Source of the DNA: Candidatus Heimdallarchaeota archaeon | Lineage (GTDB): Archaea; Asgardarchaeota; Wukongarchaeia; Wukongarchaeales; JBHIFL01 | Assembly: GCA_046761065.1 (NCBI GenBank) | Contig: JBHIFL010000061.1 | Coordinates: 1 to 25,053, forward strand | Reading direction: 5' to 3' | DNA length: 25,053 nt | Shown: in pieces, positions 4,741 through 9,025 of the stretch | How positions within the stretch are numbered: position 1 is the stretch's first letter | Layout: every line of letters starts with the position of its first letter | Translations under genes and position numbers: made by a program | The notes under the pieces: generated by a model | The model's database searches: none | Told to the model about the DNA's origin: nothing | What the model saw: only the letters and a program-made list of their open reading frames with translations

Positions 4741-5145
4741 GTGAGGAGGATCGGTTCAGACATGTTTTTGGGTGCTGCATTGGTTGAATTTGACCCTATT
4801 CAAGGACCGATTCTCATCTATCAGAAAAGTAACCAAACCAAGGTAAAATCCACAATTGAAGAATTACTTACTCAGGATAACTTAATAAAGCTTTATATGA
4901 CCGCTTCTACTTCTCTATCCCCCCGCTCAATTTATTTTGATGACTTCATCGTTGTTATCTCGCGTTGTGGGCTCTCAATGCTCTTTTTTTTCTTAGATCG
5001 GAGAACCTCTGACAACCAAGTTATGACATATTGGCGAAAAGCTCGGATCCTCACTGGAAAACACTCGAAGAAGGGGCAAAAGGAGGTTTTGGTCCACAAG
5101 TTAATTTCCGCTTTGGATCGCAATTTTCAGGTTGCCGCACAGTGA
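4741..5145 (+). CDS. Stand-alone longin/uDENN-like domain protein
   Basis: N-terminal LVEFDPIQGPILIYQ fits the h-h-F-D-x3-G-P start of uDENN/NPRL2-type longins, followed by a helix, beta strands and a helix. GAGGAGG at 4743-4749 suggests the ATG at 4762 is the true start. Confidence 0.65.
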   Translation: MRRIGSDMFLGAALVEFDPIQGPILIYQKSNQTKVKSTIEELLTQDNLIKLYMTASTSLSPRSIYFDDFIVVISRCGLSMLFFFLDRRTSDNQVMTYWRKARILTGKHSKKGQKEVLVHKLISALDRNFQVAAQ

Positions 5146-5405: not shown

Positions 5406-7742
5406 TTGCCCCGTTTTCCCTCACTGCCTACTGAGGACATTCTCCTTTTAGGAGGAATAGTGGGGGCTATTCTTTTTACAGTTCTACTAAGCTCGGAATT
5501 ATACAAATATCTACGATATCGAACCCACAATGACGCCTTAGAATTATCGCTTCTTGGCCTCACCGGAACGGGTGTCCTAGCTTTCACCAAAGATCTCTTC
5601 TTAGCGCTTTTAGTGGCGCTGTTTGTCATGACCATGATCCAAACCTATCAACTCCGGGAGTATCCGATCTGGTCAAAGCTTACAATCATGACTTCAGTGG
5701 TTTACGGCCTCCTACTGGGCGCCTTGATCGCCTCAAAATTCTTGCACCAAGAACGGATCTTCGGGATTGCTCTTAACGCAAGCTTTTGGGTGCTATTGAT
5801 CCTCGGATTCATCTTTTTTGGCCGAAAATATATTCTTGTATCTCGTCTCGTTTCCCCTCAATATCTCTATCTCTTTCTCTATCTTGCCGGTTATCTACTG
5901 ATTTGGGGGCTGCACATTCAAACATACATCTACGAAGCCATTTTCGTGATAAATATAGTCATCTATCTTATCAGTGGGGTTGCTCTCGATCTAATCATGG
6001 GCATCAAACGCTTAGAAGATCCCAAGATCCGTGTTCTCGTCGATCGAGTCAGCACACAAATCGGGATGAAACCCAGGATTAAGATAGGCATTGCACGGGC
6101 CCCGATCTTAAATGCCATGGCCTATGGACCCTTCTTTGATCGCCGTATTGCGCTTATTTGCTTAGATCCCTCCAAATTTACGAATGAAGATCTCGAAGGG
6201 ATTGTTGGACATGAGATAAGTCATGCTTATGAGCACCATACCCTGATTCTATTACTAATCATTGGTGTAGAGCTGTTCATCCGTAAGGTGTTCAATATCC
6301 CCGCAACGACCTACGATTATGCATTTAAAGAGCAAGAAATGAGTTTTTTACAGTTCTACCTCCTTGGATTGGTTATCGGAGCCTTTTTATTAATCTTTGT
6401 CCGTATTCTCGAGGGGCGGGCTGACCGCCGTACAAAGGAAGCAGGTTATGGGCCTCAACTTACCCGAGCACTTTACATGCTGGAAGGGTTCTATCGGGGC
6501 ATTGGTGGGGCTGCTGGGCTGGATGTACGGCTCTTGAGTGATAAAAAGGTCGAAAAAGAACGATGGCAAGTTAGTATGGGCGATGCGGCGCAAGAGTTGC
6601 GAAATTTCCTCCTCCGCCCCTCCAAACTGGGGTTACTCACCAATATTCTCGTTAGTCACCCCCATACCTCCTTTCGTGCAGCTGCTCTCCTAGATCCAAC
6701 AATTTCTCCTTTGAAAACTGCGCTCTTACCGTACTCGCTTCTCGTTGGCCGCGGACGAGCCATGTTGGCAAAAACAGTGGATGGAATTGAAGCGTTCTTG
6801 GACGACCGGTATTGTAGTTCTTTTGGAGACGACGCTGTCACTGAATACCTCCAGTATACTGGAACTCTATATGGATATGAACGATTCAAGAACCGGAAAA
6901 TCCTTTTTTTCCCTCGTTTTCGCGGACCGAACCCAGTAGTTGGGACGGTACGTGCGATTCAAAGCACCAGCAAAATCTCGACTCCTGTGCAATTCATGAT
7001 CGATCCCTTTCCCTTGGATGATGATAGAAACCCTTCTTCCCCATTATTTGAAACAATCAATCCCCAGGATTTTGACAAACTTTTCTATGAAGAGGGTGCA
7101 ATGTACGTCTTAAAGAACGGTGAGTTCGCTCGACTGAGAACTTTTTATCTCAAAGGCAAAAAACCAAAGATAAAATTTGAATATGAAATGAACTCTCGTG
7201 TTTTCAAGAAGAAGTTCCTCGGTCTCTTACTTGACGATCTTCTTGAGATTCGTGGGAAGAAAGCGCTTTTACGGGTAGATGGACGCACAAAGGTGATCAC
7301 AGTTCTGGACATTGTATTAGGTGACGACTTTCACTCTACCCAGTTCGTCTTTGACATTCAAGGTACAAGCCAGGAAGGACTTGGTAAAGATTATATCCTT
7401 GAAGCACCGCCCTTTTTTGTATCACTTGACCATGAGAAAGGTGAATTGGAAATCCTCGACTGGTTAGCTGCCGAACGGATTCCAGTGACCCTTTTCACGA
7501 AAGATGAACTTGAACAAGGGATTCACTGTATCATCTCTGAAGTCCAAGCTTCTTCAAAAGTCGAGATCCTCAAGTTCAATAATCCTGCCAAGAAAGAAGT
7601 CCTTAATGCCAATGTAATCGAAGGCGTCTTTTTTGTGATTAAAAGCTTCATTTTCATACGAAAAGACCAAACTGGACTTGGATCACGCCTTGGAACGCGT
7701 CTTTTCAATCGAAATAAGCAGATAAACACAATTAATGTCTGA
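5406..7742 (+). CDS. M48 (HtpX/Ste24-like) membrane zinc metalloprotease with extra N-terminal TM helices and a ~290-aa C-terminal extension
   Basis: LNAMAYG, HEISH (HEXXH), third ligand in RILEGRAD and SHP motif; multiple TM helices; GGAGG upstream of the TTG start. Confidence 0.9.
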   Translation: MPRFPSLPTEDILLLGGIVGAILFTVLLSSELYKYLRYRTHNDALELSLLGLTGTGVLAFTKDLFLALLVALFVMTMIQTYQLREYPIWSKLTIMTSVVYGLLLGALIASKFLHQERIFGIALNASFWVLLILGFIFFGRKYILVSRLVSPQYLYLFLYLAGYLLIWGLHIQTYIYEAIFVINIVIYLISGVALDLIMGIKRLEDPKIRVLVDRVSTQIGMKPRIKIGIARAPILNAMAYGPFFDRRIALICLDPSKFTNEDLEGIVGHEISHAYEHHTLILLLIIGVELFIRKVFNIPATTYDYAFKEQEMSFLQFYLLGLVIGAFLLIFVRILEGRADRRTKEAGYGPQLTRALYMLEGFYRGIGGAAGLDVRLLSDKKVEKERWQVSMGDAAQELRNFLLRPSKLGLLTNILVSHPHTSFRAAALLDPTISPLKTALLPYSLLVGRGRAMLAKTVDGIEAFLDDRYCSSFGDDAVTEYLQYTGTLYGYERFKNRKILFFPRFRGPNPVVGTVRAIQSTSKISTPVQFMIDPFPLDDDRNPSSPLFETINPQDFDKLFYEEGAMYVLKNGEFARLRTFYLKGKKPKIKFEYEMNSRVFKKKFLGLLLDDLLEIRGKKALLRVDGRTKVITVLDIVLGDDFHSTQFVFDIQGTSQEGLGKDYILEAPPFFVSLDHEKGELEILDWLAAERIPVTLFTKDELEQGIHCIISEVQASSKVEILKFNNPAKKEVLNANVIEGVFFVIKSFIFIRKDQTGLGSRLGTRLFNRNKQINTINV

Positions 7743-8026: not shown

Positions 8027-8043
8027 AGAAAAGCATTTAAATA
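8027..8043 (+). promoter_or_regulatory. Archaeal BRE/TATA promoter pointing at 8064-8066
   Basis: AGAAAAGCA followed by TTTAAATA (8036-8043). Standard spacing puts the start site on the first G residues of the structured element. Confidence 0.6.
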
Positions 8044-8063
8044 TCAATCTGTAAAGTAAGTTT

Positions 8064-8175
8064 GGACGCGGGCTATGGCTGTGCGCGTCTTAGGTTTCGT
8101 ACCTCCGACGGCAGAAGGCAACCTCTCAAAAAAGATGAAAATCTTTTTTTTAACCCCCTTTGGCCCGCGTCGCCC
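8064..8175 (+). ncRNA. Putative structured non-coding RNA or leader of unknown family
   Basis: An 11-bp closing stem (8065-8075 with 8161-8171, one U-G pair) encloses a multi-stem arm at 8079-8114 and a 9-bp GAAA-capped hairpin at 8128-8149. It is GC-rich in an AT-rich spacer and has an upstream TATA box. Confidence 0.55.
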
Positions 8176-8458
8176 AACCCCCTTTCTGTTGGCTAAACAA
8201 AGATTAGAGTGATAAATATTAATCACAGATTTGGCTCAGGATCTTAATTTTTGGTTTTTAATTAATTTGAAAGGGGATAACCTGAATAGGGGAAAATCTA
8301 AGGCAGTAAAATCGAAACTTCTTATAACAATAAAAATGCCAGCAAGTGCTGGATAATATCTTATGAGTATGTGAAGGAGCCTTTTAGGTATAAAGCTATG
8401 ATATCCAGGTTGTGCGGAATCTTTATAGTAGAAATATCACAAAATTGGGAAGAGCACT

Positions 8459-9025
8459 TTGTCCCTTGAAAGTTTATTTTACGCAGGAACAGTAGTGTTC
8501 CTAGCTGAACTTGGCGATAAGACCATGCTGGCGACGATTTTTTTAAGTGCTCAGTACAGACGTCCAGGTGTGGTGCTTCTGGCAGCCATAGGCGCACTCG
8601 CTGCAGCGACGGTTATTGCAATCATCATCGGAGTGCTTCTTGCGGTGACTCTTCCAATTGACCTGATTCTTTACATTTCAGGGGTTCTCTTCATTATTAT
8701 GGGTATCTATACTATGGCATTATCGCGCACGAGGGAAGGGATAGATAGTGTAACCGCTACAACCTTTGGTGGAATGTTTTCTATAGTTTTCCTCGCTGAA
8801 CTTGGTGACAAAACACAAATAGCAGTTTTAGCTCTTGCAGCTCAGTCTGAAACTCCCATCTTCGTATTCATTGGGGCAATTTTTGGGTTTTTCCTTGTGA
8901 ACAGCTTAGGTACAGTTGCAGGAGATCGAATTTCCGAATATGCTCCTATTATTTGGATCAAAAGAGTGTCTGGGCTCGTGTTCATTGGCTTTGGGATTTT
9001 AATGCTAATCAGAGTAATCATCTGA
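8459..9025 (+). CDS. TMEM165/GDT1 (UPF0016) family Mn2+/Ca2+ transporter
   Basis: Two copies of the family motif ELGDKT in a duplicated 3-TM arrangement. Confidence 0.95.
   Translation: MSLESLFYAGTVVFLAELGDKTMLATIFLSAQYRRPGVVLLAAIGALAAATVIAIIIGVLLAVTLPIDLILYISGVLFIIMGIYTMALSRTREGIDSVTATTFGGMFSIVFLAELGDKTQIAVLALAAQSETPIFVFIGAIFGFFLVNSLGTVAGDRISEYAPIIWIKRVSGLVFIGFGILMLIRVII

Follow-up and report, generated by a model that had tools for sequence, protein, structure and literature searches.

An Uncatalogued Small RNA Gene in an Asgard Archaeon, with a Predicted tRNA-Type Intron

Upstream of the GDT1 antiporter gene of a Candidatus Heimdallarchaeota archaeon lies a short element with a GC content of 54%, against 33% in each flank. 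The question is whether the element is an RNA gene of its own or a leader of GDT1, and what its product may look like and act upon. It is part of the window, that is, the whole stretch of 25,053 nt that was analyzed, from a hydrothermal vent metagenome; the assembly was confirmed by four DNA runs, which are possibly the runs it was built from. The original prediction described here an RNA with a promoter, a closing helix (P1), two arms, a U8 run (8144–8151), and an alternative helix, and the coordinates of all of them check. The features are the following:

5406–7742, + strand: M48 peptidase gene (PF01435), upstream neighbor; same order at the homolog loci
8027–8043, + strand: archaeal promoter, BRE-like purine run and TATA box; core kept in 9/9 sequences
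8064–8084, + strand: exon 1, with the predicted start (G8064/8065), the 5′ strand of P1 (8065–8075), and the first half of the invariant junction motif
8079–8117, + strand: relaxed bulge–helix–bulge (BHB) motif, HBh′; outer helix imperfect
8085–8116, + strand: predicted intron of 32 nt (arm 2 of the original prediction)
8117–8185, + strand: exon 2
8128–8149, + strand: arm 3, a variable A/U hairpin; GAAA loop in the window
8150–8160, + strand: unpaired C-rich motif, copy 1, with AACCCC core; kept in 9/9
8161–8171, + strand: 3′ strand of P1; positions 1–9 paired in 8/8 aligned sequences
8172–8185, + strand: single-stranded 3′ tail, C-rich motif copy 2 and then a pyrimidine run; identical in 9/9
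8459–9025, + strand: GDT1 antiporter gene (PF01169), downstream neighbor

Promoter, Fold, and Homologs of the RNA Gene

The window RNA comes from a genuine small RNA gene of this Asgard archaeon that has not been catalogued before and is present as a single copy in the genome. The original proposal of a new, stable small RNA under a promoter of its own is now backed by eight syntenic homologs from Asgard relatives (nine sequences with that of the window), by compensatory changes in P1, and by a fixed promoter spacing.

The TATA box TTTAAATA is located at 8036–8043, and the promoter core AGAAAAGCATTTAA is present in all nine sequences. Across the homologs, the first paired G follows the TATA T at a distance of 28–30 nt, with drift in the sequence of the intervening spacer; judged by this spacing, transcription would start at G8064/8065. 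The 3′ end is likely to be found at about 8185, where the tail is followed by a pyrimidine run. The extent originally given to the RNA held for its elements but was too short at the 3′ end, as it omitted the 14-nt tail (8172–8185) beyond P1.

The + strand of 8060–8180 folds at −44.5 kcal/mol and is more stable than its shuffled controls (z = −3.98, with 0 of the 200 shuffles as stable). The − strand folds as well (z = −3.45), and thus the strand is assigned by the promoter and not by the folding energy. Predicted spliced forms also exceed their shuffles in stability, with z from −2.0 to −3.7. P1, formed by 8065–8075 with 8161–8171, shows alternative pair types at six of its nine conserved positions among the eight aligned sequences, and the changes of one homolog (L290) may in part be a single register shift. 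In a pair count on a model-fitted alignment, which leans towards structure, 96.6% of the cells were paired and 13 pairs had two-sided changes, a value reached by none of 500 shuffles; the two such changes in helix 2 are artefacts of the way the intronless rows were aligned.

Within this frame, three unpaired motifs are nearly invariant, i.e., the junction motif CUGUGC-GGCAACCU, the C-rich motif preceding the 3′ strand of P1, and the 14-nt tail. The C-rich motif thus occurs in two direct copies, 24 nt apart. Arm 3 is far more variable: a GNRA loop is found in five sequences, the arm is short or absent in the remainder, and arm 3 and the U run are reduced or gone in L289, L290, and L389. The location of invariant single strands inside a covarying frame points to recognition in trans.

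The homologs were collected in two ways. A 17-base pattern run over metagenomes gave 120 matches, two of which were true homologs, and six further distinct homologs came from contigs retrieved through the neighboring GDT1 and M48 genes. The RNA is placed directly upstream of GDT1, and behind M48, wherever these genes are on the contig, a synteny which is partly due to selection, as most homologs were gathered through one of the two genes. Spacer and flanks are at shuffle-level identity in the distant homologs. The GDT1 start codon (8459–8461) is TTG in the window and ATG in the homologs. The nearest named relatives of the GDT1 protein are from Thorarchaeota (44–54% identity), and an 86%-identical relative of a neighboring protein is labelled Ca. 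Hodarchaeota. Farther upstream, the ORF 4741–5145 encodes a 134-aa protein that belongs to no Pfam family and occurs in 12 close relatives only.

Beyond these species the RNA was not met. BLAST against 61 relatives, a set that holds no sister genome of the same GTDB family, gave only short A/T-rich chance matches. Pattern searches of 300–400 Asgard genomes, as well as two covariance models applied to 40 genomes each, detected nothing outside the own genome, and 17 Thor genomes were likewise negative with the models; an intron at a different position could hide a homolog from both kinds of search. In both genomes of the same order, the M48 gene is present with no RNA behind it; one of them (G001) carries GDT1 and M48 on separate contigs, and the RNA was seen beside neither. 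Weak matches in other Asgard genomes were rejected as coding (e.g., L427, inside a 238-aa ORF) or as lacking promoter and stem, and a viral match (L299) as a chance match. The RNA is proposed to belong to one Asgard family; it was not found in the other families searched.

The second view of the original prediction was that of an Mn/Ca-sensing riboswitch or an attenuator leader for GDT1. GDT1 does follow the RNA in the homologs, with the reservation on synteny given above, and the alternative helix (8064–8070 with 8084–8090) is the favored fold of 30–60-nt prefixes, with 7/7 or 6/7 pairs in five intron-bearing sequences. However, this helix is 8.5 kcal/mol less stable in the full RNA and falls to 3/7 pairs in L268 and to 1–2/7 in the three intronless homologs, where it cannot form; it is lost in relatives, as is arm 3, and the unconserved spacer between RNA and GDT1 has lengths of 147–309 nt. 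The yybP-ykoY riboswitch likewise precedes a GDT1-family gene, but the window RNA matches neither its sequence nor its structure, has no conserved expression platform, and is 147–309 nt away from the start codon; no yybP-ykoY or other Rfam match appeared at the gathering score or at E values up to 10. The switch is therefore abandoned as highly improbable. No evidence was obtained for a control of GDT1 by the RNA, and GDT1 is a syntenic neighbor only.

Arm 2 as a Predicted Intron

Arm 2 is formed by three short helices, i.e., CUGU 8079–8082/GCAG 8111–8114, CGUC 8086–8089/GACG 8107–8110, and AGGU 8092–8095/ACCU 8101–8104. The stretch 8085–8116 is missing from L289, L290, and L389, in which the junction motif is unbroken. 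In the window, the first helix can be read as the central helix of a BHB motif, with bulges at 8083–8085 and 8115–8117 and with 8086–8089/8107–8110 as the inner helix. Archaeal splicing endonucleases cut behind the second base of each bulge. Cuts predicted by this rule lead exactly to the junction present in the three homologs. Arm 2 is most likely a 32-nt tRNA-type intron, whose removal would rebuild the most conserved motif of the RNA.

The geometry is repeated in the other copies. All four pairs of the central helix are kept in the six intron-bearing copies and in a second intron of L226, and the inner helix varies from 3 to 9 bp (4 bp in the window). When the inserts were shuffled, the BHB geometry had a P of 0.0007–0.004 over the copies (0.0007 for the window). 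The insert of L268 begins with A and thereby fixes the intron border unambiguously. L226 has a second, unrelated insert of 30 nt, which lies two bases upstream and shares this geometry (P = 0.0008); its removal rebuilds the first motif. As for the outer helix, its first pair is mismatched and two pairs follow, and thus the strict hBHBh′ form is not attained. The relaxed HBh′ is a published class, and motifs of this kind are cut by two-subunit endonucleases with a specific loop (PMC6379350, PMC4090602). The GDT1 tree leaves gain and loss of the intron undecided.

Arm 2 might instead stay unspliced, as a variable arm tolerated by an RNA with a three- or four-way junction. Its stem changes are compensatory, its outer helix is imperfect, and the loop GGUUUCGUNCC is invariant in the six copies, an oddity if the intron is simply discarded and a point against splicing. 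On the other side, each of the two independent insertions has its ends at BHB cut positions (P about 0.001 in either case) and splits a motif that shows no variation among the intronless homologs. An arm kept in the mature RNA is, on this balance, quite unlikely. As arm 2 has the behavior of a BHB-type intron, the multi-way junction of the original prediction stands as a fold of the precursor and not as the likely mature form. Separately, the intron loop (8093–8103) has an 8-nt complementarity to a lineage-specific stretch of 16S rRNA, for which about 7% is expected by chance.

The enzymes for such a reaction are encoded in the genome. There are two EndA paralogs (L297 on C15 and L298 on C2); by inspection, the Tyr/His/Lys residues are present in one, together with a CSL-like loop, and the His is missing from the other, so the pair apparently consists of a catalytic and a structural subunit, as read from the residues. 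RtcB is also encoded.

Inserts in the tRNA, SRP RNA, and 16S genes of this genome served as internal controls. Most of the called tRNAs are interrupted. In the SRP RNA gene (L033:1501–1844; G000 C1:41419–41762), the tip of helix 8 carries an insert of 31 nt with BHB geometry (P = 0.0005), the excision of which restores the canonical loop. The 16S gene (L295; G000 C1:440–2273, − strand) contains inserts of 310 and 42 nt at apparent intron sites and measures 1482 nt without both. Inserts within or just before helix 45 are also seen in other Asgard 16S genes (L391, L396, L400, L412, L414, and L415) and are probably further introns. In the RNase P RNA (L034:1823–1845), an additional hairpin of 22 nt precedes the last conserved region and is probably P19 rather than an intron.

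The predicted intron shares with the BHB introns of multi-intron tRNAs in Thermoproteales and Asgard archaea (PMC4090602, bioRxiv 10.64898/2026.10.13.758758) an insert of 30–35 nt, a 4-bp central helix, cuts behind the second base of 3-nt bulges, the relaxed HBh′ form, presence or absence among relatives, and more than one intron per gene. It differs in its host, which is neither tRNA, rRNA, nor mRNA. BHB substrates named in the literature searched are tRNA, rRNA, and single mRNAs (PMC6379350, PMC7714728), and the preprint on Asgard introns, in which tRNA genes repeatedly acquire such introns, covers tRNA hosts only (bioRxiv 10.64898/2026.10.13.758758).

Taken together, the following pathway is proposed. 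The own archaeal promoter would drive transcription from about 8064 to about 8185, and the 122-nt precursor would adopt the relaxed BHB motif. The two-subunit tRNA splicing endonuclease would then cut behind 8084 and behind 8116, and RtcB would ligate the exons. The product, of about 90 nt (75–85 nt as the predicted mature length in intronless species), would possess an 11-bp terminal stem, an invariant C-rich 3′ tail, and a large loop in which the rebuilt junction motif and the C-rich motif surround a dispensable hairpin. On sequence grounds, transcription and splicing are held to be very probable, and the architecture of gene plus intron, apart from any target, is considered probable. With less assurance, the RNA may act in trans through base pairing of its exposed invariant motifs.

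Known RNA Classes and Candidate Partners

The window had no match in Rfam, and two of the intronless homologs were likewise negative. A tRNA or a piece of a split tRNA was rejected, since ARAGORN found no tRNA in the window, the spliced form has no T-loop, and the intronless homologs give no tRNA match. A degenerate 5S rRNA was dropped; the only RF00001 matches of the genome are on C1, at the 5S gene (L031:1500–1655; G000 C1:83457–83600). This gene appears to be circularly permuted, with the 3′ half first, an 11-nt linker, and a flanking inverted repeat, and many Asgard families have two adjacent weak RF00001 matches. C and D boxes are absent, by inspection, from all homologs, which excludes a box C/D sRNA. 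Archaeal H/ACA sRNAs have an ACA box 14–16 nt from the pocket and a K-turn or K-loop. In the window RNA, no ACA follows P1, the pocket is about 22 nt from the stem base, and there is no K-turn motif, so this class was also rejected.

The lead target, tentatively and from modeled pairing, is the 3′ end of 16S rRNA, on which the RNA might serve as a maturation chaperone or a guide; the assignment is doubtful. The junction motif could pair with the 5′ strand of h45 at 11 of 12 positions (one G-U pair, with A-A as the single mismatch). Just upstream and in the right order, the 3′ strand of h44 could take up the C-rich loop motif, and arm 3 would sit where the two duplexes branch. No other site in the 16S and 23S rRNAs scores as well, whether the junction motif is taken alone or the two-part pairing is considered, the margin being 3.8 kcal/mol, and the site ranks first for three homologs. 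The two-part score is, in a post hoc search, reached by 11% of shuffled targets (P about 0.11), and the junction motif alone does no better than shuffles. The A-A mismatch is invariant, and the pairing leaves the 3′ tail unaccounted for; a pairing of the tail with the pre-16S trailer was rejected, as 73% of shuffles do equally well. Absence from the other Asgard families searched would be unexpected for a core rRNA guide. The 16S rRNA of this genome has an uncommon h45 stem beside the GGAA loop, in common with family f19.

A narrower form of this proposal is a box-less guide or chaperone for the decoding region of 16S rRNA (h44/h45) with a SNORD13-like job, whose antisense element would be formed only by tRNA-type splicing; it is regarded as rather unlikely. 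SNORD13 and snR45 are guides for the acetylation of 18S helix 45 (PMC9670809). If the predicted pairing is real, the window RNA resembles them in having two separate imperfect antisense elements near the 3′ end of the small-subunit rRNA. On the contrary, it has no C/D boxes, and its predicted duplex (P about 0.11) covers the CCG of h45, which is not looped out, and leaves the h44–h45 linker free.

Keeping gene and intron, the mature product may be a regulatory sRNA that binds the G-rich Shine-Dalgarno (SD) sequences of mRNAs by pairing through its two unpaired C-rich motifs, like cuckoo RNAs or RsaE. The two copies are conserved and unpaired, the narrow distribution fits, and the genome uses SD sequences; the motif pairs at −8 kcal/mol or better with 8.5% of the −19 to −6 windows, compared with about 2% elsewhere. 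This enrichment is, however, seen with any C-rich oligo and is higher for the true anti-SD (16.6%), and the invariant junction motif is not SD-directed (4.8% vs. about 4%). The window RNA shares with the cuckoo and C-rich-seed sRNAs (PMC4615179, PMC2790875) repeated unpaired C-rich motifs able to meet SD sequences; it differs in being archaeal and intron-bearing and in having another motif, not placed in the loops of 2–4 hairpins. A cuckoo RNA proper was rejected, as CCUCCUCCC in the loops of 2–4 adjacent hairpins (PMC4615179) is absent. The sRNA reading is a minor possibility, doubtful on present numbers and about as probable as the 16S target.

Gene and intron would equally be retained if the invariant single strands were bound by proteins (e.g., poly(C)- or U-rich-binding ones), with the RNA as a scaffold or decoy like Y or vault RNAs. 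The terminal stem, the pyrimidine-rich loop, and the 3′ tail are in accordance with this, as are the two direct copies of one motif and the lack of statistical significance of the RNA targets. Against it, no Ro60/TROVE gene, the partner of Y RNAs, was found in the genome, which is 91% complete, and no partner gene is linked to the locus. Protein binding is possible, if on the unlikely side.

At 5129–5142 of the window, in the final codons of the ORF 4741–5145, there is also an exact match of 14 nt to the reverse complement of the spliced junction (13/14 in L357). An antisense role of the junction on this ORF was rejected as probably chance: the encoded residues vary in distant relatives and the RNA motif does not.

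Implications for Asgard RNA Biology

A strongly conserved, uncatalogued small RNA is present in a lineage close to the origin of eukaryotes, with a novelty tempered by a function that we can only infer. Here, tRNA-type introns have probably entered a host other than tRNA, rRNA, or mRNA, twice within a few bases of one motif; no published case of such a host was found in the literature searched. The natural alleles with zero, one, and two introns form a compact system in which intron gain and the substrate choice of a two-subunit endonuclease could be tested. If the guide or chaperone for the 16S decoding region is true, splicing would gate the activity of an RNA in a close relative of eukaryotes. 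Homology searches are disrupted by such introns, and other Asgard RNAs are perhaps hidden in the same way.
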